32,000 nucleotides of DNA from Candidatus Jordarchaeales archaeon (GTDB lineage Archaea > Asgardarchaeota > Jordiarchaeia > Jordiarchaeales > Freyrarchaeaceae). The translations under genes and the position numbers were made by a program. Where the stretch lies: assembly GCA_038858525.1 (NCBI GenBank), contig JAWCFL010000011.1:30001-62000 (forward strand). Reading direction: 5' to 3'. Below, one piece after another: positions 9,729-31,352 of the stretch. Numbering within the stretch: the first letter of the stretch is position 1; every line of letters begins with the position of its first letter. Under the pieces are notes generated by a model. It was not told the origin of the DNA, did no database searches, and was given only the letters and a program-made list of their open reading frames with translations.

Positions 9729-12044
9729 GTGAAGAAAAGATGCGAAATACTGTGCAGCGGAGTAGTTCAAGGAGTCGGCATGCGGCCTTTCGTGTACCGG
9801 ATAGCTGTCAAAAACAGCTTAACAGGCTACGTCCTCAACTTGGGGGATGCCGGAGTAAAAATAGTCGTTGAAGGAGAAGAGGAAGACATTAAAAGGTTTA
9901 TGATGGAGCTAAAGGAGAAAAAACCCCCACTGGCAAAGTTTGAGAAGATAAGGACGAAGTGGGGAAAGGCACGCGGAGAGTTCGATACGTTCACCATAGA
10001 GAAGAGTAGCAGTGACAGGATACTCGAAAGTTCCTACATACCTCCAGACGTGGCGATCTGCAATAACTGCATACAGGACATGTTGAACCCTAATGATAGG
10101 CATTACAAGTATGCGTTCACATGCTGCGCGGACTGCGGTCCAAGGTATACATCAATAATAGGTTTACCCTACGATAGAGAACTAACAACGATGCGAGACT
10201 TCCCTCTGTGCCCTCACTGCATGGAGGAATACATGAACCCTATGGATAGGAGATACCACGCTCAAGGAATATGCTGCCCTATCTGCGGCCCAAAACTCAC
10301 ACTCCACGCGAAAAACGGTGAGCTCATAGATTGCAACAACCCAATAGCGGAGGCAGCCAGATTAATAAATGAGGGGGCCATAGTGGCTGTGAAGGGTATA
10401 GGGGGAAGCCACCTAGCGGCGCTCACAACTGATGACGAATGCGTACTTAAACTAAGGCAGAGGAAAAGAGACAGGAAGTATAAGCCCTTCGCTGTCATGT
10501 CTCTGAGCCTCAACGAAGTAAGAAAGTATGCAGAAGTTAGTCAAAAAGAAGAGGAGGTTCTAACATCCTTCAGACGACCCATAGTGCTACTCAGGAAAAA
10601 AGAGGACTTTCCGCTTTCTAAGTGGATTAGCCCCGGACTACACAACATAGGTGTGATGCTGCCATACTCGGGACTGCACATACTCTTGCTGCAAGAGGTC
10701 ACAGACCCCGCTGTCATAATGACCAGCGGAAACGCGTCAGGAAAGCCCATAGCAGCAAGCAACGAGGAAATCATCACCCACCTTAGCGACTTAGCAGATT
10801 ACTTCTTGCTCCACAACAGAGTGATATACCAGAGGTGTGACGACTCTGTTGTCAAGATAGTAAATGGAAAAACCAAGCTGATACGCAGGTCAAGAGGCTA
10901 TGTGCCAGAACCAATAGAGACGCCGATACCGTACAGGGGAAAAGGAATACTGGCAGTCGGACCAGAACTAACAGTAACAGTAACCGTTATGAAGGGAAGT
11001 AGGTGCTATGCCAGTCAACACATAGGCGACGTCTCAGGCGACCTCGACATGATGGAGTTCCACGAAAGCGTCACGACACACCTGCTAAAACTTTTAAACG
11101 TAAATCCTGAAGCCTTGGCATGTGATCTGCACCCTCAATTCATGACGACCAAGATAGCAGAAGAATACGCTGAAAAATGGCAGGTCCCGCTGGTGAGGGT
11201 TCAGCACCATCATGCCCATGCGGCTGCACTAAAAGCGGAGCACAAATTGGATGAACCCATAGTCTGCATAGCGTGTGACGGCGTCGGCTACGGGCCAGAT
11301 GGAACTATATGGGGTGGAGAAGTGCTACTCTCAGACTATGAGTCGAGCGAGAGACTCGGGCACCTTGCCCCCCAACTTATGCCCGGAGGAGACCAAGCCA
11401 CTAAGTACCCAATAAGAATGGCGGCATCCATTCTCAGCCGTGTTTTGTCCGACAGTGAACTGAGGGATATTCTAACATCAAAATACATTGACGGGTTTAA
11501 ATACGGGGAAAAAGAGGTGGAAGTTGTCCTAAAGATGATAAGAGACGCTAAGGGGCCTCTCTCAACCAGTACAGGGCGCGTCTTAGACGCTATAGCAGCC
11601 CTGCTAGGAATATGCATGGAGAAAACATATCAAGGAGAGCCAGCGATGAGGCTTGAGGCAGCGGCGGCAAAAGGCAAACCAACCCTGAAAATAGAGCCCA
11701 AAATAAGTCGCTCAGACGGACGATACGTACTTGACACGTCCCAAATACTTTCTGAAGTGCTACAGGCGTTAGGAAAACATAGAGTAGAGGACTTAGCGGC
11801 ATCCGCCCAGCACGCTATAGCAATAGGATTAGCGGACATCGCCGTGAACGTGGCACAAGAGGAAAATGTGAGAACCGTTGGGTTTACAGGAGGCGTAGCA
11901 TACAACGAAGCCATAACAAAAACCATAAGAAAGCACGTCGAAAAAAACGGGCTAGTTTTTATACAGCACTCAGTTATACCTCCAGGCGACGCTGGAGTGA
12001 GCATAGGGCAAGCGATAGTGGCGGCGTGCAGATTATTAGGTTAG
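9729..12044 (+). CDS. hypF: Hydrogenase maturation carbamoyltransferase
   Basis: Acylphosphatase GVVQGVGMRPFVYR, Zn fingers (CNNC, CADCGPRY, CPHC, CPICGP), KGIGG, SQHIGD, CDLHP, QHHHAH, DGVGYG and PPGDAGVSIGQ. Confidence 0.97.
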   Translation: MKKRCEILCSGVVQGVGMRPFVYRIAVKNSLTGYVLNLGDAGVKIVVEGEEEDIKRFMMELKEKKPPLAKFEKIRTKWGKARGEFDTFTIEKSSSDRILESSYIPPDVAICNNCIQDMLNPNDRHYKYAFTCCADCGPRYTSIIGLPYDRELTTMRDFPLCPHCMEEYMNPMDRRYHAQGICCPICGPKLTLHAKNGELIDCNNPIAEAARLINEGAIVAVKGIGGSHLAALTTDDECVLKLRQRKRDRKYKPFAVMSLSLNEVRKYAEVSQKEEEVLTSFRRPIVLLRKKEDFPLSKWISPGLHNIGVMLPYSGLHILLLQEVTDPAVIMTSGNASGKPIAASNEEIITHLSDLADYFLLHNRVIYQRCDDSVVKIVNGKTKLIRRSRGYVPEPIETPIPYRGKGILAVGPELTVTVTVMKGSRCYASQHIGDVSGDLDMMEFHESVTTHLLKLLNVNPEALACDLHPQFMTTKIAEEYAEKWQVPLVRVQHHHAHAAALKAEHKLDEPIVCIACDGVGYGPDGTIWGGEVLLSDYESSERLGHLAPQLMPGGDQATKYPIRMAASILSRVLSDSELRDILTSKYIDGFKYGEKEVEVVLKMIRDAKGPLSTSTGRVLDAIAALLGICMEKTYQGEPAMRLEAAAAKGKPTLKIEPKISRSDGRYVLDTSQILSEVLQALGKHRVEDLAASAQHAIAIGLADIAVNVAQEENVRTVGFTGGVAYNEAITKTIRKHVEKNGLVFIQHSVIPPGDAGVSIGQAIVAACRLLG

Positions 12045-12550
12045 AAGTTGCCAGCAACCATAAACGGCTTAGCATACTCCTCAACCAACTGAATTAACTG
12101 CTCCTCTAGCTTTTTAAGATGGGGACTTGATTCCCCATAATCCAACCTCAACCTTTCGCGATAACTCGATATGAGGCTTGAAAGCTCAATGTAAGGCGCC
12201 AAGTTTGGAGTGTCCAGTAGCCCAACGTAACCTAGAAGGATTAACGTGTAAATTGACTTCACAACGTTCCTACAAGCCTGCTCGAGTACACGTCTAAAGG
12301 CGCCCTTTGTAACCCCGCGGGCAAGACGTGGCCTCCGCCCTCTCGCATTCCTAGAAGCTCTCAGGAGACCTTTGAGGGAATACTGAACTCCTCTTCCAGC
12401 GCTTTCATCTAGAAGAAAATGGATGACCAGCGTTTCAAACTGTATACGGGTGAGGTTAGACGAAGAGAGAAGGCGAGAAACAATAGAGTCGCCGAGGAGG
12501 CGACGCAGAAAATCCTCTAATTCGTTCAGTTCGACGTCTGCTCTGTCCAT
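12041..12550 (-). CDS. Uncharacterised helical protein with a possible HTH (169 aa)
   Basis: ATG lies 2 nt after the upstream stop, suggesting coupling. GVTKGAFRRVLEQA resembles an HTH recognition helix. From memory it resembles hypothetical proteins near cdc6 in TACK archaea (unverified). Confidence 0.75.
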   Translation of the reverse strand: MDRADVELNELEDFLRRLLGDSIVSRLLSSSNLTRIQFETLVIHFLLDESAGRGVQYSLKGLLRASRNARGRRPRLARGVTKGAFRRVLEQACRNVVKSIYTLILLGYVGLLDTPNLAPYIELSSLISSYRERLRLDYGESSPHLKKLEEQLIQLVEEYAKPFMVAGNF

Positions 12551-12552
12551 CT

Positions 12553-12984
12553 TCAGCCACCTTCACTTTTCAATTTGCCAAGCGTAGTGTACTGCTCCTC
12601 TAGGAGCTGGAATAATCCAAGTTCCTTCAGCTCTAACTCATCAAAAACTGTTTTCATCTTCTCCAGTATGGCAAGCCTGCAGAATACTGTTGCTCCACGC
12701 TCCCCAAACTTTTTCTTGAGCAGGGAGATGAAGCTACTAGGAAGCCTTACGTTGAAGTTTTGATCAAGCCGAGTCTTAGGGTCCTTCCTCACATAGACTA
12801 TTTTCTCCACTACCTGGACGGGTAGAGGCGACGTGACCTTCTCATCCACCAGAGATAATGAGGCCGCTGGCTGAGGATGAGCCACGGCACCTTCCTCATA
12901 GTTAAGAGGAGCAGGAGGCTGTGAGATTTGCCCATACTTTTCCTGCTCCTTGACTTTCTTCGCTATGTCAACCAGCCTCGTCAT
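12553..12984 (-). CDS. Uncharacterised protein with a C-terminal ribbon-helix-helix-like domain (143 aa)
   Basis: ATG after GGTGA. Basic N-terminal helix, Pro/Ala-rich linker, then a strand-helix-helix pattern: FNVRL / PSSFISLLKKKF / ATVFCRLAILEKM. Confidence 0.7.
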   Translation of the reverse strand: MTRLVDIAKKVKEQEKYGQISQPPAPLNYEEGAVAHPQPAASLSLVDEKVTSPLPVQVVEKIVYVRKDPKTRLDQNFNVRLPSSFISLLKKKFGERGATVFCRLAILEKMKTVFDELELKELGLFQLLEEQYTTLGKLKSEGG

Positions 12985-12996
12985 CTTATATCACCC

Positions 12997-13038
12997 GCAT
13001 CGATGCGCGACATCGATATCTGAAAGCGATATCAGACT
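12997..13038. promoter_or_regulatory. Palindrome-rich spacer, candidate operator or centromere-like site
   Basis: GCATCGATGC (12997-13006), CGACATCGATATC (13008-13020) and GATATC (13028-13033) lie in the 52-nt spacer between the ATPase and RHH genes. Confidence 0.55.
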
Positions 13039-14092
13039 ACTCTGGAACCTCCTCGATGCATGGTAAAGCATCCACAAGGGCTCCATCGATCACAGGGCTT
13101 CCTCCATCCTTGAACCTGTTAGCAGCAACGAACACTGCCTGGTTGCAAAGCATACGAAGGTCACGCCCCACACCCATAGACTTTCGTTTCAAAGCAGGAA
13201 CCGCATCCTCGGTGAAGGGGTGTATTTCAAAAGAGGACTCGTCAAACTCCTTAAGGCGGCCGCTAGCCCAATAAAGCCTCCTGCCGATAAATTCCCTGAC
13301 GCCGCGCTCATCCAATGGTTCAAGCTCGATCTCCCAACATCTATCATAGAGGTGAGGGACGCCTTCCTTGAGACCTATAGCATGAGTCTTCGTTCCAGTC
13401 AAAACGAGCATGCATATCATCTGATCCTCGTCGCCCTCCTCCGCAGCCCGCTTAATCGCATTAATCTCCCCCTCGTCAAGCTTCATTTTTTTAAGCTTAA
13501 GGAACCGCTTGAATTCATCTTCTTCTTCAACTACGAACCGCTTGGCGTCCTTCAGCGTTAAGTCGCCGACCTCCTTGATCTTAATAAAGACCTCAACGTC
13601 GTTCTCGCCGAAATCATCTATGAATATCAACGTAAGATATCCACTCAAAAGATATCGAAGCATGATATCATACTTGACCAGCACGTAAATGTCTTCAGCA
13701 TTGGCCGATCGAGAATATGGAACCCTAAGTTTCTTCGCCAAAACCTCAGCCATCTGCCTCACATACAGCTTACTCTGAGACACCATCACGGGATAGAAAC
13801 GATACTCAGGGTCACCCTGCCTAGAAAGCTCTAGAAGGTCCCCGTAAATCAGCTCGAGAAGCGTCGTTTTACCCATGCCGGGAAACTCGCTCGTTATCAG
13901 TATATGCCGCTCCCTAGCCTTAATGTAATCATCGATCTCAACTATTACATCATGAGGAGCCACGAACAGTTCAGGGTCGCTTAACCTCACACTCGAAAAC
14001 GGGTTCCACCTCCACCCGAAGAAGGAGTAGTATGCATTTCTAATCTCAGCCACCGAAGGGTAGAGACGCCCAACAGCACCCATACGCTCCAC
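13037..14092 (-). CDS. ExeA/TnsC-like (AAA_22-type) AAA+ ATPase, about 351 aa
   Basis: YYSFFGWRWNPFS leader, P-loop ITSEFPGMGKTT, Walker B IFIDD, MLVLTGT, candidate Arg finger LYDR and lid FTEDAVPALKRKSMGVGRDLRMLCNQA. GTG 14092 lies 6 nt after GGAGGT; ATG 14083 is an alternative. Confidence 0.8.
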   Translation of the reverse strand: MERMGAVGRLYPSVAEIRNAYYSFFGWRWNPFSSVRLSDPELFVAPHDVIVEIDDYIKARERHILITSEFPGMGKTTLLELIYGDLLELSRQGDPEYRFYPVMVSQSKLYVRQMAEVLAKKLRVPYSRSANAEDIYVLVKYDIMLRYLLSGYLTLIFIDDFGENDVEVFIKIKEVGDLTLKDAKRFVVEEEDEFKRFLKLKKMKLDEGEINAIKRAAEEGDEDQMICMLVLTGTKTHAIGLKEGVPHLYDRCWEIELEPLDERGVREFIGRRLYWASGRLKEFDESSFEIHPFTEDAVPALKRKSMGVGRDLRMLCNQAVFVAANRFKDGGSPVIDGALVDALPCIEEVPE

Positions 14093-14102
14093 ACAACCAC
14101 CT

Positions 14103-14150
14103 CCGACATCCGATATCGACAGCCGAAAAAGATACCAGAATCCAGATATC
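14103..14150. promoter_or_regulatory. GA(T/C)ATC cluster just upstream of the ATPase RBS
   Basis: CGACATC-CGATATCG (14104-14118) and AGATATC (14144-14150). Confidence 0.5.
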
Positions 14151-14444
14151 AAAACCAGAAAACGATACGCAAAATCTAAAGAGAAAAAACATCGTAATAC
14201 GTAGAGAACACCAACAGAATACGAGAAATACGCGGGAAGGCCAGCTGCGATTGAAAAGGAACACGAGCTCAAGAAACACTAAGAGAGCTAAACGAGAACC
14301 AAGAGCGACGTAGGTTTACAAAAAAGTATACCCACAGGGAGCCTAAAGCAGAAGAGAACATCAAACGAAAAGGATAAATACCAGAAATATGGAGGGAATA
14401 CCTCCATAAATAAGAAAGACGAAGAGCACAACAGTATTAGTTAC

Positions 14445-14464
14445 TTTGGAACATGTGTTCCAAA
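14445..14464. repeat. 20-bp palindrome, copy 1
   Basis: TTTGGAACA-TG-TGTTCCAAA. Confidence 0.85.
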
Positions 14465-14466
14465 AA

Positions 14467-14820
14467 TCACGACTTTTTGCTCTCCTTAAGCGCAGCATAA
14501 GAAGTAAGGAGGTCCACCCAAGATTTGAGAAAACCCTTGGCGAACCCCGCCCTCTCAGGAAGGTTTGAGGAGAAAACTTGCGCCAGAGAATCCAGATACT
14601 TCGCGTATCTCCTAGCGTCTTCTGCTGAGAGACCATTCATTAGTGAAACTATTAGGGAAATCTGGTTAAGTTTTTCAAGACCTGCAAGCCAACCTCGCCA
14701 GGCCAGCTCAACCCATTTATCTTTAAACCGTGATTCCTCCAAAGCTGCTTTAGCGATTTCAATGGCCTTCTTGTGATCGCCTTCAGCCAATGCTTTAACG
14801 AATTCTTCAACTTCACTCAA
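14467..14820 (-). CDS. Uncharacterised small helical protein (about 117 aa), origin-adjacent
   Basis: TTG 14820 after GGTGG (ORF track starts at GTG 14829). Amphipathic helices with WRGWLAGL and KGFLKSWVDLL. Confidence 0.75.
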   Translation of the reverse strand: MSEVEEFVKALAEGDHKKAIEIAKAALEESRFKDKWVELAWRGWLAGLEKLNQISLIVSLMNGLSAEDARRYAKYLDSLAQVFSSNLPERAGFAKGFLKSWVDLLTSYAALKESKKS

Positions 14821-14975
14821 AACAACCACCCTGCTTAATTAAATATATAAAAAGACGACTAATTAAGATTTCCAGCAAAATGACGATTTCAGCAATCGAA
14901 AATGGATGTCGTAATCAGATATCGATACTTGAATTGCATTTTTTATTTTTGTTCAGTGCATGAAGTGCGACAAGC

Positions 14976-14996
14976 ACCCCTTCGTTTCTACTGTAA
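14976..14996 (-). promoter_or_regulatory. Origin recognition box ORB-1
   Basis: Minus strand reads TTACAGTAGAAACGAAGGGGT, matching the archaeal ORB consensus TTCCAGTGGAAACnAAGGGGT. Confidence 0.88.
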
Positions 14997-15131
14997 CAGG
15001 TAAACTTATAAATCACTAAGCTAAACTTGAGCTTTTTATACAAAAAACTTATATCTTCTAAGTCCCAAGTATTTTGGGGGAGAGTTTTAATTTTAAAAGT
15101 TTAATTAATAAACTTAAGAGAGTTTTACTTT
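14997..15131. other. AT-rich candidate DNA unwinding element of oriC
   Basis: 135-bp AT-rich non-coding segment between oppositely oriented ORB-1 and ORB-2. Confidence 0.7.
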
Positions 15132-15152
15132 TTCCAGTTGAAACAGTGGGGT
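15132..15152 (+). promoter_or_regulatory. Origin recognition box ORB-2
   Basis: TTCCAGTTGAAACAGTGGGGT. Confidence 0.88.
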
Positions 15153-15173
15153 GGGTGGGTTTCCTTCTTTTAT

Positions 15174-15193
15174 TTTGGAACACATGTTCTAAA
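15174..15193. repeat. 20-bp palindrome, copy 2 (inverted relative to copy 1)
   Basis: TTTGGAACA-CA-TGTTCTAAA; 19/20 identical to the reverse complement of 14445-14464. Confidence 0.85.
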
Positions 15194-15476
15194 TGTTTTC
15201 TTCCTCTACAACTACAAAAACTCGGCACTTAACAATATCCTTGTATTTCTTGAAGAAAGCATTGAAGACTTCTGCGTGTTCATCTTGAACTAGTATTGCG
15301 CTATCTCCTGCCCTGTCGCAACCATAGAAGTCCACAAGGCCTAATTTTTGCCCCTTTAATGTTTTTCCTTCCTTGTTTTTCCATTTGTAGGCGTATCCGA
15401 AGAGTTCCTTGAAGAATTTCACCCTGCGCGGGTTACTCGAATGTTCCGCCTTTACGTCGTAGACGTATATTCTCAA
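15189..15476 (-). CDS. Small protein with a Cas2/VapD-like sequence pattern (95 aa)
   Basis: TTG 6 nt after GGAGGG. IYVYDV...RRVKFFKELFGY and SAILV resemble the Cas2/VapD ferredoxin-like fold. The fold is inferred. Confidence 0.6.
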   Translation of the reverse strand: MRIYVYDVKAEHSSNPRRVKFFKELFGYAYKWKNKEGKTLKGQKLGLVDFYGCDRAGDSAILVQDEHAEVFNAFFKKYKDIVKCRVFVVVEEENI

Positions 15477-15553
15477 AGTTTTCCCTCCATCAATACGTTG
15501 CAGCCATTCGTCTTTGAAGACTTGTATTTTCGTTGTCTTTTTGTGGTCAATAG

Positions 15554-15921
15554 CTTAACATGTTAACACAGTGTTAACATAGCCGTTTTGAGTTGTTAAC
15601 ACGTTGTTTTTGCTATGAATAATGCAAATTATCTTAGTTAAAAATTGACCCCTTTATTTCAACTGCAACATTTTTTTCGATATTTTTCTCTTTCCTTTTC
15701 GTGTTAACACGGTTTGTTAACCTTTATTTAGAAAAAACAATGGAAAATTGTTTTTTTGAAGATTTACCGCTTTTTATTTCAATTTTTCTTGTTAATACTT
15801 TTTAAAAATTCTCTTTGTCAAAAGATGGCGTATTTTTTCCTTTTTTTGTTCTTTTCGTGTTCGTCACGTTAACAAATTTACACATTATTTCTCTTTGTTT
15901 TTAACGCGTTGTTTTGTTAAC
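15554..15921. repeat. Cluster of seven GTTAAC palindromes
   Basis: GTTAAC at 15562, 15573, 15595, 15703, 15716, 15868 and 15916, including ATGTTAACAC-A-GTGTTAACAT (15560-15580). Confidence 0.85.
15648..15668 (-). promoter_or_regulatory. Origin recognition box ORB-3
   Basis: Minus strand reads TTGCAGTTGAAATAAAGGGGT. Confidence 0.85.
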
Positions 15922-16255
15922 GTATTGCGTGTTTTAGGTGAACCATTTCCCCCTTTAGAAAATAACGTTTTTTTGCTGGCTTCAAAGTTTTTATGGACTC
16001 TTCTTTTAGCTTATCGTAGAAAGCGGCATATGTTCTGTTTTTCAGAGGGATTGAGCTGCGGGTTAATGTTCAAGTGTAAAGTGTTTGGTGTTGGCTCCTG
16101 AAAGCCCCTGAGGTTGTATTTTTGTGGGTGGAATGCATTAGTCTTGCAGTTTGATTATTCTGCTTTTTATGTGTTGCTGGTTGGAGTTGTTAAGGGTGTT
16201 TTTCGGGTGTAATAGATAGACATATATATTTACGCGTGTAAGTTTAACTTACCTC

Positions 16256-16269
16256 GTTTCCAGTGGAAG
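16256..16269 (+). promoter_or_regulatory. Mini-ORB overlapping the RBS of the winged-helix gene
   Basis: GTTTCCAGTGGAAG, the ORB core without the G-string. Confidence 0.75.
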
Positions 16270-16278
16270 GTGTGCTGG

Positions 16279-16749
16279 TTGGGGGCGAAGCGCTACAAGA
16301 TCGAGATAGTTGATGCCGAGCGCAACGTGAAGGCTACTTTGACTATTGAGGGTGATGTTTCCCCCCAGCTGGCGGCATCTCTTGTGGAGGAGCTTTCCGA
16401 GAAACTGTCTGAGGGCGGAGTGGCGGAGGAGGCACCTGCTGGGTTTGAGGCTTCCGAGGTTGACGCCGAGCTCCCCGACACTGAAAGTCTCTCGATGAAG
16501 GATAAAATTGAACTTGTACTGCTAAAGTATTTCCAGTATGGGTGGTTTACTTCTGGTGATGTTCATGAGCAGTTTACTCGGGTTTTTGGTGAGACCTCTC
16601 TAAGCGTGGTTTCAACATACTTGGCGAGGCTGCGTAGTGAGGGGCTCTTGGAGCGTAAGGGAACGAAAAAGCAGTATTATTACCGGCTTAAGGAAAGTGG
16701 CCGGCTCAGGGCTTCTAGGCTTAGCGAGCTTCTTCAGCTTCTTCCGTGA
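16279..16749 (+). CDS. Winged-helix protein with a small N-terminal beta domain, upstream of cdc6
   Basis: C-terminal wHTH pattern WFTSGDVHEQF...SLSVVSTYLARLRSEGLLERKG...YYYRL, with an acidic linker. TTG 16279 lies after AAGGTG. Confidence 0.8.
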   Translation: MGAKRYKIEIVDAERNVKATLTIEGDVSPQLAASLVEELSEKLSEGGVAEEAPAGFEASEVDAELPDTESLSMKDKIELVLLKYFQYGWFTSGDVHEQFTRVFGETSLSVVSTYLARLRSEGLLERKGTKKQYYYRLKESGRLRASRLSELLQLLP

Positions 16750-16770
16750 AGTTGCTTCTCGACCGAGTGT

Positions 16771-16841
16771 GTTTCCAGTGTAATATTAATGGATATATTT
16801 GCCGGAAGTTAAGCATTATTCACCTTTGTTTCCAGTGGAAG
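16771..16841 (+). promoter_or_regulatory. Two mini-ORBs in the cdc6 upstream region
   Basis: GTTTCCAGTG (16771-16780) and GTTTCCAGTGGAAG (16828-16841). Confidence 0.75.
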
Positions 16842-16861
16842 TAGGAAAAGTGGTGGTTTGT

Positions 16862-18109
16862 TTGGGTGAACGTTCTCTTGAGGCGCTTTTTGAAAGGTTT
16901 CTCTCAACCAAGATCTTCAAGAATCGTGACGTGTTGAGTCATACTTATGTTCCTGACGAGTTACCTCACCGTGACGAGCAAATAGAGAAGGTTGGGTTAA
17001 TTCTCGCCTCAGCTCTTAAGGGCGGCACTCCTTCGAACGTTTTCATTTATGGAAAGACGGGTACAGGTAAGACTGCTGTCGTACGCTTCGTTCTTAAGCA
17101 CCTTGTTGCTAAGTGTCACGAGCTGAATGTGCCTGCTCCCTTACCCGCTTACCTTAACTGTAGAATTGTAAACACTAATTATCGTGTTCTGGCTCGGCTT
17201 TGCTCCTACTTAGGTGTCGAGGTTCCCTTTACGGGTCTGCCTACCGATGAGGTTTACAGTAGGTTTAGGGACGTGCTTGATAGCAGGGACGTGTTGATGA
17301 TAATCGTGCTCGACGAGGTTGAACGGTTAGTTGAGCGGGACGGTAGTAACGTCCTCTACGACCTAACTAGGATGAATCACACTGTTCTTAAGCGGGCGCG
17401 CGTCAGCATAATAGGCATCACGAATGACTTAACGTTCAAGGATAACCTTGATCCTAGAGTGCTGAGTAGCTTAGGGGAAGAAGAGCTAGTTTTCCCGCCT
17501 TACACTGCCGCTGAGCTCAGGGACATTCTTTGGCAGAGGGCTCAGCTTGCCTTCAGAGAGGGCGCTCTTGAAGGTCCAGGAGTCATCAATCTTTGCGCAG
17601 CTATAGCCGCTAAGGAGCACGGGGACGCCCGTCGCGCCCTAGACTTGCTTAGAGTCGCTGGCGAGATAGCTGAGCGGGAGGGCGCAGAAAAGGTTTCCGA
17701 AGAGCATGTGAGAGCCGCTCAACACGTCATCGAGCGAGATCACCTGGTTGAGGCACTGAGAACTCTCCCTATGCATTCTAAGCTTGTACTTTACACTATT
17801 TTTGAGTTGACTAAGCAGGGAAGGGGTAAAGCTAGGACCGGGGACATATACAACTACTACTTGAACGTTTGCAGGCGTCTACATGTTGAGCCGTTAACTC
17901 AGAGGCGGGTTAGTAGCCTTATAAATGAGCTTGACATGCTGGGTGTCGTTGCGGCTCATCTTAAAAGCAGAGGACGCCATGGGCTCTCGAAAGAAGTGAA
18001 ACTCAACGTTTCAGTAAATCAAGTCAAACAAGTCTTAGAGGAGGATTCATTCATAAAGAAGCTTTCATCCAGTGACTCGTCTCCTCTCTTTGAGGCTAGT
18101 CCCCAGTAA
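16862..18109 (+). CDS. cdc6: Orc1/Cdc6 replication initiator
   Basis: YVPDELPHRDEQI, YGKTGTGKT, LDEV, IGITND, LDPRVLSSL, FPPYTAAEL, HGDARRALDLLR and a C-terminal wHTH (SRGRHG). TTG 16862 after GGTGG preferred over 16799. Confidence 0.97.
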   Translation: MGERSLEALFERFLSTKIFKNRDVLSHTYVPDELPHRDEQIEKVGLILASALKGGTPSNVFIYGKTGTGKTAVVRFVLKHLVAKCHELNVPAPLPAYLNCRIVNTNYRVLARLCSYLGVEVPFTGLPTDEVYSRFRDVLDSRDVLMIIVLDEVERLVERDGSNVLYDLTRMNHTVLKRARVSIIGITNDLTFKDNLDPRVLSSLGEEELVFPPYTAAELRDILWQRAQLAFREGALEGPGVINLCAAIAAKEHGDARRALDLLRVAGEIAEREGAEKVSEEHVRAAQHVIERDHLVEALRTLPMHSKLVLYTIFELTKQGRGKARTGDIYNYYLNVCRRLHVEPLTQRRVSSLINELDMLGVVAAHLKSRGRHGLSKEVKLNVSVNQVKQVLEEDSFIKKLSSSDSSPLFEASPQ

Positions 18110-23066: not shown

Positions 23067-23960
23067 TTATTTCTCTGATGCAAACCTCCAAAACTCCTCT
23101 ACCGCTGCGGACATCTTCCTTCTTTTGTCTCTAACAAGATACAGCACACGCTCGACGTCCCACCCTTCCACCTCAATGATCTTGACCAGTCCAGCGGCCT
23201 CTGCCTTCCTGGCAGCAGTCTCAGACAAAACGGTTATCCCAAGCCCCACAGACACCGCGTTTATCACCGCTTCCGTGCTGCCAGCTTCCAGTGATATCTT
23301 CACCTTGTCAAGAGGAACTCCCAGCTGCATGAAAGCTCTTTCTGCCTCAATTCTGGTTCCCGATGTTTTTCCCCTAAACACAAATGGGTAACGTAAGCAA
23401 TCCTCCAATGTAACTTTCTTTTTCATCGCAAGCTCATGGTTAACTGGACATATGAAAACAAGTCTTTCTCTTCCGATAGGCGTTACCTCTATCTCCTTAG
23501 CACTCGCCTCCATAAGGCTTCCCACAGCTGCTAGGTCAGCCTCTCCCCTAAGTAGCTTCTTTAAGGCTCCACCAGTATCTAACACCTCGATCTCAAAACT
23601 GATCTTCGGATTCTTTTCTTTGAATCGAGCCACTAATTCAGGAAGAATGTGCTCCCCTGGAATAGTGCTCGCTACAAGTATTATTTTTTCCTCCCCCTCT
23701 CCCTCCATCTTTCTTAGCTCCTCCTTAATCTTCTCTACTAGTTCTAGAATCTCCTTAGCTCTCTTCAGCAGTGCTTCACCTTCCTTGGTTAACCTTACTG
23801 TTCTCCTACTCCTATCAAAAAGAGTTACACCAAAAAATTTCTCGAGCGCAGCTATGTGATTGCTTACTGTGGCTTGGGTCACTCCCAGCTCTCTAGCAGC
23901 CCTAAGGAACCCGCCCTTCTCCACAACCTCAACAAACGTTCTAAAGTACTCTATCCTCAT
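23067..23960 (-). CDS. LysR-family transcriptional regulator
   Basis: FLRAARELGVTQATVSNHIAALE...LFDRS...LTKEG, ASTIPGEHILP, PFVFRGKTSGTR and GSTEAVINAVSVGLGI. Confidence 0.95.
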   Translation of the reverse strand: MRIEYFRTFVEVVEKGGFLRAARELGVTQATVSNHIAALEKFFGVTLFDRSRRTVRLTKEGEALLKRAKEILELVEKIKEELRKMEGEGEEKIILVASTIPGEHILPELVARFKEKNPKISFEIEVLDTGGALKKLLRGEADLAAVGSLMEASAKEIEVTPIGRERLVFICPVNHELAMKKKVTLEDCLRYPFVFRGKTSGTRIEAERAFMQLGVPLDKVKISLEAGSTEAVINAVSVGLGITVLSETAARKAEAAGLVKIIEVEGWDVERVLYLVRDKRRKMSAAVEEFWRFASEK

Positions 23961-29444: not shown

Positions 29445-31352
29445 TCAAGCACCACTGTTAGCGTAAATCGCAGTACACCTAACCTCCATGCACTTAGAAC
29501 AATGGGCGCATCTATCCTCAAGTATCCATGCCATCCCCCAATTAATTAGAACAGCCTGTCTTTTACAGGCAGAAGCACACTCGCCGCAGCCCACACACCT
29601 CAACGCCTTAACCACAACATGAGCAACACGCCGCTTAATTTCATCTATCCCCTCCTCTGAACCGCTGGAAATCGTGAAGCTTCCATCCTCGAGTATCCTT
29701 GCCTCTCCCCACCTACAAGCAACAGCGACCTCACCTATACTCGTACTGACCTCACCCATTACGTTGGCAATGTTTTTGATACGTGAAAGGTCCAAAGGAG
29801 AGTTGAACCGTCCGGAAAGAATTGTTCTCCCGTCTCTCTCACCTCTTTGTCCGATGCAGTATGTAATCTTTTTTCCTCCAGCTGGTCTCTCAGCAAGCAT
29901 TACCCCCAATTGCTTAGCTAGTTCCAAATGTCCCTTCGGTAACCTTTTCCACCTCCAAAAACCATACCGAACCCATTCCTCAGGGTACCCGTATTTTTCT
30001 CTCCATTTTTCAAGAGTGCTCATCAACATTTTGTAAAAATCTTCATGTGTCTCCTTAAGCACTTCTATCTCCGAGAGCTTGCTTGCTGGACAAGGCCAAC
30101 ATCCTATCCTGCTAAGTCCTTTCTCGTAAAGTGAATTATACTCTACGCCCTCCCTAAATATATAGAGCCACACGTGAAGCGCAGTCCAGTTCTTGATAGG
30201 GTACGCTGCTATCTGCCCTGGAACCCAAGGGTTAACGTTAACCTTCGGCTCCCTAAACCTAGCTTCAGACTCATAACTTCTCTGCCCAATAAATGTCAGG
30301 CACCCCTCCGGAAAGTTCTCCTTAATAAGCTTCGTTAACGGTCCCAGCTTGCATCCCTTACAGCATATTCTGTAATCTCTCCCTGGAGGACCAAATTCCT
30401 CAACAAGCTTCCAGAAAACATCGCTGGCAACTTTTTCCTCCAATAAATCAACTCCTAGTTTTTTAATAAACCTCTCCGTGTAAGCTACAGTTTCAGGGAA
30501 CTCTACTCCGGTATCAACGAACAGAACCTTGAAGTTCTCTCCAAGCGCTTTTTGCACAAGTAAAAGAGTAACCAACGAATCCTTTCCGCCAGAAAAAGCC
30601 ACGGTCACGGGTCTACCGTAATTTTTAGCTACATTCCTAATGAAGCGTAACGCATCCTTTTCGAACATATCCAAGACTTCTTCGTTGGCCCTTACAGCAT
30701 CGCTCCATGTCCCCCTATTCGTTTCTTTCCCCCTTGGCAAAATTCCTCTTTCCCTTATCTTTACAGCCACTCCTCTTTCACGCGCCAGCATTTCTCTCCC
30801 CGACTTCTTTGCCACTCCAACAGCGAAAACTTCTCCATTAGAATCAACGACAACCACGTGATCTCCAATGTTAATTTCGTGATCACAATCTAGAACACCG
30901 GGACCGAGAAGATTGGCACTCCCCTGCAGTATGCTCTCAACCGCTCCCTTATCTGCGCAAACCCATTTACCTCCTCCTTGTTGCCATATAACACGTCCTC
31001 CAGCCAGCTTCGGTAAAAACTCCCAGCTCAGTTTAAAAACGTTAAATCTAAGAGCTCCGATAATTTCTCCGTCCATAATCACTTCGTCCATGTGGTCTAA
31101 GTAGGGCACCTTGTTTAGCACCACACAGCCATCACAACACAAGTCGACTCCAAACTGGAATTTCACAACATTACGCAGAACTTCAATTTCCCTTCTAAAG
31201 GCTGGCCTCACGTCTCCCGGCGGCGAAATATCGACATCAATTCCCCTTCCCCCGCACGATGAACATTTCTCATCTAGAAGCGGAACACCACAATCCATGC
31301 ACCAGAATAATTTAACAGCTCCCAAATAAACACCCAAATCGTCCACCCACAA
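29445..31352 (-). CDS. PAPS-reductase-family (PP-loop) protein with Zn ribbon, PUA and 4Fe-4S dicluster domains
   Basis: CMDC...CSSC, PUA (DKGAVESILQGSANLLGPGV), AFSGGKDS, CCKGCKLGP, RIGCWPCP and C-terminal CVGCGECASAC...CAHCSKC. Confidence 0.88.
   Translation of the reverse strand: MWVDDLGVYLGAVKLFWCMDCGVPLLDEKCSSCGGRGIDVDISPPGDVRPAFRREIEVLRNVVKFQFGVDLCCDGCVVLNKVPYLDHMDEVIMDGEIIGALRFNVFKLSWEFLPKLAGGRVIWQQGGGKWVCADKGAVESILQGSANLLGPGVLDCDHEINIGDHVVVVDSNGEVFAVGVAKKSGREMLARERGVAVKIRERGILPRGKETNRGTWSDAVRANEEVLDMFEKDALRFIRNVAKNYGRPVTVAFSGGKDSLVTLLLVQKALGENFKVLFVDTGVEFPETVAYTERFIKKLGVDLLEEKVASDVFWKLVEEFGPPGRDYRICCKGCKLGPLTKLIKENFPEGCLTFIGQRSYESEARFREPKVNVNPWVPGQIAAYPIKNWTALHVWLYIFREGVEYNSLYEKGLSRIGCWPCPASKLSEIEVLKETHEDFYKMLMSTLEKWREKYGYPEEWVRYGFWRWKRLPKGHLELAKQLGVMLAERPAGGKKITYCIGQRGERDGRTILSGRFNSPLDLSRIKNIANVMGEVSTSIGEVAVACRWGEARILEDGSFTISSGSEEGIDEIKRRVAHVVVKALRCVGCGECASACKRQAVLINWGMAWILEDRCAHCSKCMEVRCTAIYANSGA

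Follow-up and report, generated by a model that had tools for sequence, protein, structure and literature searches.

In the type Ib and type II partition cassettes of plasmids (ParF-ParG, delta-omega, ParM-ParR/parC), a small dimeric ribbon-helix-helix (RHH) protein binds the centromere and acts on the NTPase through a flexible N-terminal tail, iterated short repeats serve as both centromere and operator, and the adaptor gene is located directly downstream of the motor gene. Papers on ParG are cited in PMC13722703. On an archaeal chromosome, a related arrangement is described for SegAB/segS of Sulfolobales (PMC12139799, PMC8682754), where SegB carries an RHH motif and the chromosome has a single copy of the full segS triple repeat, adjacent to segAB (PMC12139799). 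The locus presented here was found in a 32-kb stretch (the window) of contig JAWCFL010000011.1 from Candidatus Jordarchaeales archaeon, and the names of its homologs place the organism in Freyarchaeota/Jordarchaeales, Asgard archaea. It consists of an operon, conserved next to the origin in Freyarchaeia/Jordarchaeia, that encodes an AAA+ ATPase, an adaptor-like protein of 143 amino acids (aa) and a third protein, P3, together with a cluster of the palindrome GATATC. Judging by their sequence and spacing, the GATATC sites are most likely protein-binding iterons with a 6-bp palindromic core every 13-14 bp, and the reading put forward here, held with about even confidence, is that the arrays are RHH-bound operator and centromere-like sites which recruit the AAA+ ATPase. 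A literature search returned SegAB/segS, HpaAB, ParG and aCcr1 as the nearest described systems, and no paper on an AAA+/RHH origin-side module or on GATATC iterons in Asgard archaea.

The operon resembles SegAB/segS in being an archaeal chromosomal operon in which an NTPase is followed by a small, here putative, site-specific adaptor with an RHH motif, and in the short repeats placed directly upstream, of which the full triple repeat occurs in segS once per chromosome, proximal to the origin. However, the NTPase there is a ParA Walker ATPase and here an Orc/Cdc6-like AAA+ protein, and the [AGNGTNN]x3 arrangement of segS contrasts with a 6-bp palindrome in 13-14-bp steps, in units that are far more numerous and in part intragenic. 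Similarity of the 143-aa protein to SegB was not detected at the sequence level. The plasmid cassettes also differ in motor class, and the present operon is chromosomal, adjoins oriC, has a 13-14-bp period and encodes the third protein P3. None of the known classes of partition motor (ParA/Walker, actin-like, tubulin-like) is represented, the motor belonging to the AAA+ Orc/Cdc6/TnsC clade; the adaptor gene directly downstream of the motor gene, on the other hand, is found here as well as in the Asgard families labelled f7 (with overlapping genes), f3, f12, f20, f26 and f27, and a cis repeat cluster that is rare or unique in the replicon adjoins the operon. With Orc1/Cdc6 and the origin recognition boxes (ORB) the locus shares the AAA+ initiator-clade fold, origin adjacency and repeated DNA boxes, but its boxes are unlike ORB, and a canonical Orc1 with ORB-like boxes is present separately, 1-3 kb off. 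TnsC, TniB and MuB (7ufi, 7m99, 7rzy) represent the same fold class, and in them, as is proposed here, a separate sequence-specific protein directs a DNA-polymerising AAA+ assembly; in contrast to them, the operon has no transposase and no element ends, and its ATPase gene is single-copy and syntenic across the order and beyond. The small RHH cell-cycle regulators aCcr1/CdrS (PMC9976878) have about 58 aa, occupy one or two boxes at many promoters and have no partner ATPase, whereas the locus described here has its long arrays in a single cluster of the genome and a protein built like an adaptor.

The initial annotation listed eight GATATC copies at the module (13015-14923) and, by eye, three beyond it, at 23293, 25396 and 26039. 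All of these positions proved exact, and the window holds 11 copies in total. In the genome as a whole GATATC occurs 277 times in 2,092,542 bp (0.13/kb), and its observed/expected ratio of 0.95 means that it is neither favoured nor avoided. Computed against this background, the local density is extreme: the densest 2-kb window of the genome is this locus, with 8 copies against 3 in the runner-up, and uniform placement of 277 sites produced a maximum of at least 8 per 2 kb in 0 of 5000 trials. A chance or compositional artefact as the source of the cluster is ruled out by the genome-wide density and the random placement. Variants of GATATC with one mismatch are also about twofold denser at the locus (7.2 vs 3.3 per kb), and all 6 pairs of near-sites (at most one mismatch) with 13- or 14-bp spacing in the window fall within 13015-14918. 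Three of the four GATATC-N6-9-GATATC pairs of this genome are located here. The sole other close pair (G000:C8:14700-14717) has a 12-bp spacing; a similar pair is present in another genome at a comparable contig coordinate (G002:C1:14926-14943).

The sites are organised in four arrays (Table 1). A compound motif, CGACATC with GATATC, had been proposed upstream of three consecutive genes; CGACATC is present at 13008 and 14104 and its complement GATGTCG at 14905, but it does not constitute a separate element, because each compound is an exact GATATC together with a one-mismatch sister (GACATC or GATGTC) placed 6-7 or 13 bp away. Elsewhere in the window CGACATC has one further copy only, at 31232. 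Similarly, the three GATATC copies noted within 35 bp of the ATPase open reading frame exist, and they are the core of a five-unit array whose units read GAAATC, AATATC and three times GATATC, with steps of 13, 13, 15 and 13 bp. This intragenic array contains the longest perfectly conserved nucleotide run of the ATPase gene in four genomes of this genus (31 nt, the next being 11), and 12 of its 13 degenerate codons are identical in the four genomes, compared with 31% gene-wide. In the sister genus (G004) the same peptide, DIMLRYLL, is encoded without any GATATC. The synonymous constraint, together with this alternative coding of the peptide, indicates that the sites are selected as DNA. The remaining arrays are associated with gene starts, with sites directly next to the start codon and the ribosome-binding site in both the ATPase and the RHH gene: the array upstream of the ATPase start adjoins the GGAGGTGG ribosome-binding site of that gene, and the spacer array, located in the 52 bp between the end of the ATPase gene and the start of the RHH gene, lies immediately upstream of the ribosome-binding site of the latter. 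The two-unit array precedes the 118/120-aa gene by 85-100 bp and the TATA-like box of that gene by about 60 bp, and G001-G004 have exact sites at the equivalent place. In a relative of about 93% identity from a sediment metagenome (run X17), 14173-14299 and 14877-14976 are swapped for unrelated sequence of similar length, the latter segment including the 14918 site.

Table 1. Genes of the operon and GATATC arrays, in window coordinates
Feature	Position	Strand	Units or basis
169-aa Asgard protein P3, possible helix-turn-helix (HTH), single-copy	12041..12550	-	
143-aa adaptor-like protein (P0002)	12553..12984	-	alignment of 20 homologs
Array in the 52-bp ATPase-RHH spacer	13008..13033		GACATC 13009, GATATC 13015, GATATC 13028
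AAA+ ATPase, initiator clade (Orc/Cdc6/TnsC-like), without winged helix	13037..14092	-	
Five-unit array within the ATPase open reading frame	13610..13669		units 13610, 13623, 13636, 13651, 13664
Array upstream of the ATPase start	14104..14169		GACATC 14105, GATATC 14112, GATACC 14131, GATATC 14145, GATACG 14164
P0004, 118-120 aa, helical, lineage-specific	14467..14829	-	
Two-unit array	14905..14923		GATGTC 14905, GATATC 14918, 13-bp step

Conservation of the sites was assessed at ten orthologous loci that represent the same genus, family and order and whose ATPases are 61-94% identical. Each has the three core genes and retains between 4 and 16 GATATC copies in 4 kb. The distances between copies peak at 13/14, 26-28, 39-41 and 54 bp, and the arrays are placed upstream of the ATPase gene, in the ATPase-RHH spacer and near P3. 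Gene order is likewise kept from HypF through to the PolD small subunit. In genus g3 the spacer array has grown to 5-9 units, with TTAATAA-like boxes among them, and one GATATC site is located between the ribosome-binding site of the RHH gene and its TTG start. In a relative with a complete genome of 3.58 Mb (G006), 9 of 10 GATATC-N6-9-GATATC pairs fall in 1,636,680-1,648,120, that is, in the 11.5 kb around orc1 and the operon, and the looser pattern GATATC-N7-GATRTY has 14 of its 16 strand matches at the locus, control patterns giving 0-1 per strand. All three such close pairs of G009 are on the operon contig. Of the 31 GATATC copies in the 20-kb locus of G006 (L016), 28 are intergenic; the convergent PolD-small and orc1 genes have three of these between them, spaced in 13-bp steps, and eleven are in the probable origin, a long non-coding stretch (6784-10028 of L016) adjoining orc1. 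The earlier statement that the sites are confined to the ATPase-RHH module therefore holds for this genus, but not for the sister family, in which the arrays span about 11 kb including the origin and the flanks of orc1.

The operon is flanked by HypF on one side and, on the other, by an AT-rich region with ORB-like boxes, a small winged-helix gene, orc1/cdc6 and the PolD small subunit. The ORB-like boxes, the AT-rich core and a family of TGTTAACA boxes upstream of orc1 are, by their sequence, recognised as a classical archaeal oriC, from which the operon is 0.1-2 kb away, the module beginning about 0.2 kb from the ORB-like boxes. These boxes (TTCCAGTNGAAAC...GGGG), direct and inverted, are found at 15130-15152, 15648-15668, 16256-16283 and 16771-16783 and bracket the AT-rich core, within which the separate TGTTAACA(C) family lies (15554-15922). 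Identity of the GATATC arrays with ORB boxes was ruled out, as classical ORB-like boxes are separately present, and a mobile-element origin of the operon was ruled out by synteny.

The 143-aa protein begins with a conserved peptide (MTRLVDIAKKVKEQE), which a low-complexity linker of variable sequence joins to an Arc-like RHH core (NFNVRLP-SSFISLLKKKFGERGATVFCRLAILEKM), and it ends in a helix. The family core is nearly invariant (TRLD.NFNVR[LM]PS...LK..FGERGATVFCR.AILE), and its beta-strand NFNVR[LM]P is invariant throughout families f1 and f2 in the alignment of homologs. We take the FN.R.P strand to resemble the Arc/Mnt signature. The neighbours of the protein in a protein atlas, useful as leads only, are RHH families, and the RHH fold is regarded as probable. 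The core was also compared with phage genomes by tblastn, without a match.

The ATPase gene is preceded on the minus strand by the 118-120-aa gene and a 380-bp T-rich spacer, and followed by the 143-aa and 169-aa genes. Its start is probably GTG 14092 (351 aa), because the homologs have 351 aa and begin with MER; ATG 14083 is the alternative. The protein has the Orc1/Cdc6-type AAA+ fold with intact Walker A (GMGKTT) and Walker B (IFIDD) motifs, and the arginine R248 of a YDRC motif is invariant in the family alignment; from our own reading of AAA+ motifs, R248 is presumably the arginine finger and the GVGRDLR stretch sensor 2. The AlphaFold2 model has a predicted local distance difference test (pLDDT) score of 90, and its best Foldseek matches (1w5t, 1fnn, 7jgr, 2qby, 7ufi) are archaeal Orc/Cdc6, then eukaryotic ORC/Cdc6, then TnsC. 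In agreement with this, Pfam AAA_22 matches all 23 aligned family members, and the profile search of PDB matched Cdc6 and TnsC. Relatives are few, with 26 matches at E <=0.001 among 1.8 billion representatives. The winged helix of Orc1/Cdc6 initiators is absent: the ATPase (348-351 aa) terminates after the lid domain, some distant relatives bear a C-terminal winged helix, and Pfam Cdc6_C was detected in the adjacent true Orc1 and not in the ATPase. Without a winged helix, the ATPase has no known means of reading DNA sequence.

The proposal that GATATC sites are operator or centromere-like sites for the RHH protein, already made in the initial annotation, is the best-supported reading in view of the enrichment, conservation, placement and lineage distribution of the sites, from which we infer that the RHH protein binds them. 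The 13-14-bp pair signature is found only in f1 and f2, the carriers of this RHH type, with 4-19 pairs per locus compared with 0-1 in 15 loci of other lineages. P3 of Atabeyarchaeia shares the putative recognition segment GAFRRVL.QAC/S.N, and its loci are without arrays (0-1 pairs). A palindrome of 6 bp is, moreover, a better match for a single RHH dimer than for an HTH protein. Taken together, the lineage distribution, the P3 segment in array-less Atabeyarchaeia and the size of the palindrome favour the RHH protein as the reader.

A wider comparison of Asgard loci bears on what such a pair may do. In family f7 (L019, G015:C28:14838-27818; L020, G025:C40:123381-131999; L021; L034-L037), an ATPase of 30% identity is followed by an overlapping gene for an RHH-like adaptor, whose strand, IVSFSI, is unlike the NFNVR[LM]P of the Freya type. 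Adaptors of this type, in f7 and in the further families named below, combine a basic peptide at the N-terminus and a charged linker with a beta-alpha-alpha core at the C-terminus; the profile of the f7-type adaptors had one relevant match among PDB sequences, antitoxin Rv0298, sub-threshold at E 0.3. By hhalign the Freya RHH family showed no detectable similarity to them, so that homology of the two adaptor types is unproven. The f7 locus, running ATPase-adaptor-P3-HypF, is about 20- to 40-fold enriched in the non-palindromic word GTATTAC relative to 0.03-0.07/kb genome-wide; G015 has 206 copies, 17 of them within 13 kb at the locus, and G025 has 96, with 12 within 8.6 kb. Many of the f7 copies are intragenic, and most are dispersed without tight arrays. 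An ATPase with a small adaptor also occurs in f3, f20, f26 and f27, and family f12 probably has the pair in diverged form, to judge from gene order and an N-terminal motif. The f12 loci (L027 10667-13121, L028, L038) contain, between P3 and CBS-HTH, a larger ATPase of about 435 aa that shares the N-terminal WGF...F motif. They also encode an adaptor-like protein of 126-130 aa (N-terminus MSATDLVRERMKKEK) and a protein of 190 aa; the f12 proteins were not picked up by tblastn searches with the Freya and f7 sequences. A Markov-corrected k-mer ranking and a palindrome census gave no clear motifs in f3, f12, f20, f26 and f27, which limits the covariation of motif and adaptor to two groups.

The pair is always close to P3 and usually close to origin genes, in a shared gene order: PolD-small, orc1, origin, [NTPase + adaptor], P3, (HypF), CBS-HTH. 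In Atabeyarchaeia the slot between origin/orc1 and P3 holds ParA-ParB (L022 7063-8638, L029 8176-9745), and in another, unplaced archaeon it holds ParA with a 101-aa RHH-like protein (L023 5259-6318). This ParA-linked protein, P0076, matches the f7 adaptor weakly (BLASTP E 5e-4). ParB_N was found in none of 33 genomes of f1, f2, f3 and f12, in 3/3 of f13, regularly in f13 and f5, and sporadically in f7 (4/43). These data suggest that the motor-adaptor pair has been exchanged during Asgard evolution, and the near-complementary pattern of ATPase-adaptor and ParAB in one slot, in lineages that are few and related, is the main argument for a partition-like role. Tentatively, and with rather more doubt than conviction, it may be proposed that at least seven Asgard families (f1, f2, f3, f7, f20, f26, f27), and probably f12, possess an unrecognised class of partition machine in which AAA+ would replace ParA, RHH would replace ParB, arrays of lineage-specific words would serve as centromere (GATATC in Freyarchaeia, GTATTAC in another family) and P3 would be a third component shared with ParAB lineages.

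In the proposed mechanism, the beta-ribbon of an RHH dimer (N76, N78, R80) would insert into the major groove at each palindrome, and dimers on adjacent units would bind cooperatively. The bound arrays would occlude promoters and ribosome-binding sites of their own operon, which would lead to autoregulation. Since most arrays overlap or adjoin the promoters and ribosome-binding sites that serve the ATPase gene, the RHH gene and their neighbours, they would be autoregulatory operators; since other arrays are intragenic or stand between two convergent genes, in a cluster that has no counterpart elsewhere in the genome, they would also be a centromere-like platform. Arrays and RHH protein would in this way build a nucleoprotein platform unique to the origin region, where the conserved N-terminal peptide of the adaptor would engage, recruit or stimulate the Orc/Cdc6-like ATPase on origin-proximal DNA, and the ATPase, like ORC, TnsC or MuB, would assemble on DNA. 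Going by position and analogy, the pair probably serves to segregate or organise the origin region.

Several observations weigh against this reading. The match of the 143-aa protein to Pfam Arc (PF03869), obtained for 10 of 20 members, is sub-threshold (E 0.014-0.025, 15-16 bits vs a cut-off of 20.4); the alignment spans profile positions 2-45 of 50, over the NFNVRMP...ILEKM core. The AlphaFold2 monomer has a pLDDT of 53, with a strand at 74-82 followed by a helix in which two helices are merged, and profile searches of PDB with the RHH family and with its 51-aa core gave no RHH entry. The operon encodes a second possible DNA binder, P3, and the Freya ATPase bears a lineage-specific insertion of about 45 aa; the insertion or P3 may be an alternative reader of GATATC. 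In f7 the module is 35-74 kb from orc1 genes, though origin-associated small genes are within 6-10 kb, and the covariation of motif with adaptor strand comes from only two lineage groups. To our knowledge, no partition system has an AAA+ motor, and the segregation role is therefore proposed by position and analogy only.

One rival explanation is that the sites are operators only, with the RHH protein repressing its own operon and a few neighbours, no structural role and an ATPase unrelated to the arrays. In this genome most sites do precede a start codon by no more than 100 bp and coincide in part with ribosome-binding or TATA-like sequences, and small archaeal RHH repressors acting on short palindromes near promoters are established, e.g., aCcr1 (PMC9976878). 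Partition operons are themselves autoregulated, and operator placement alone therefore cannot separate this explanation from a centromere function. What makes it unlikely is the five-unit intragenic array under synonymous constraint, the number of sites, which is far beyond the need of a simple operator, the uniqueness of the cluster in a locus that occupies the ParAB slot, and the situation in G006, where arrays stand between convergent genes, 31 copies extend over about 15 kb and the paired arrays over about 11.5 kb including the origin. The sites could also be read by another protein, be it P3, the ATPase or an origin protein whose gene is in the vicinity. P3 is conserved alongside the module, one of its segments looks like an HTH of the sigma-70 region-4 type (an atlas lead only), three sites at 13-bp steps precede its start in g3, and the RHH fold of P0002 is putative. 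Nevertheless, P3 of Atabeyarchaeia has the same putative recognition segment with only 0-1 pairs at its loci, a 6-bp palindrome suits an RHH dimer better than an HTH, and the origin winged-helix protein and Orc1 have boxes of their own (TGTTAACA and ORB-like, respectively), so that a reader other than the RHH protein appears improbable.

Control of initiation, in which the RHH protein on iterons would recruit the AAA+ protein as a split Orc-like accessory initiator, loader or origin-sequestering factor, is suggested by the nearest folds of the ATPase (archaeal Orc/Cdc6 and eukaryotic ORC/Cdc6), by the Orc1-like C-terminal winged helix of its distant relatives, by the interleaving of the G006 arrays with the origin region and the flanks of orc1, and by the short distance between the module and the ORB-like boxes in the window. 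However, the canonical Orc1 and the classical ORB boxes that the locus has would already be enough for initiation, no array lies inside the AT-rich core in this genus, and the ParA-ParB or ParA-RHH-like pair in the same slot elsewhere points to partition; such a role is considered quite improbable. By analogy with the Dam/SeqA GATC clusters at oriC of E. coli, GATATC might instead be read in a hemimethylated state beside the origin. The analogy extends to the palindromic core, the clustering beside the origin and the close pairs. A methylation switch is nevertheless very improbable, given the genome-wide observed/expected ratio of GATATC, the non-palindromic word GTATTAC of the distant family and the one-mismatch variants kept in phase within arrays, which suit a tolerant protein reader better; no GATATC-specific methyltransferase turned up, although none was searched for.

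Asgard archaea are the closest prokaryotic relatives of eukaryotes, and we know of no genetic system for any of the lineages studied here. The locus offers a concrete and testable handle on Asgard chromosome segregation, consisting of a defined DNA element and three small soluble proteins, and a natural comparison set is available in the ParAB of Atabeyarchaeia, located in the same slot, and in the different motif of another family. Should the AAA+/RHH pair act on the arrays, it would be the first DNA-positioning or origin-handling system based on an ORC-type ATPase, and it would connect the toolkits of initiation and partition in the very lineage from which eukaryotic ORC arose. In the minimal reading, the sites would still add a new family of RHH operators and a means of marking Freyarchaeial origins.

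P3, a single-copy gene in 77 of 201 genomes, travels with the module and the origin neighbourhood; it has no Pfam match, and the PDB profile search of its family gave nothing relevant. P0004, which was assigned to no protein family, is restricted to family f1 and has no homolog in genus g3, where the arrays persist, which indicates that it is not the array reader. NCBIfam and PADLOC gave only weak, uninformative matches for six local open reading frames, and a defence-system reading of the operon was ruled out by its single-copy synteny. No RNA family was found by Rfam in 11500-17000, and a tRNA scan found none. One metatranscriptome yielded three short contigs (13061-13262, 14402-14870, 15086-15194), too little to define transcripts or their starts, and the uncovered stretches carry no information on transcription. 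A palindrome of about 18 bp, TTGGAACA(C/T)(A/G)TGTTCCAA, is present in two copies, at 14440-14460 and 15175-15192, at the 3' ends of the 118/120-aa and 95-aa genes, and G001-G004 keep ggaacacatgttcc right after the stop codon; these palindromes may be terminators or the site of another protein. Finally, GGTATACTTTTTTGTAAAC preceded by ATTTATCCTTTTCG is conserved in f1 about 240-290 nt upstream of the ATPase start (window ~14300-14380, minus strand), with the form TATGTATACACTTTTGTAAACATTTT about 400 nt upstream in genus g3, and this element could mark either a distal promoter that gives rise to a long leader or a small RNA.

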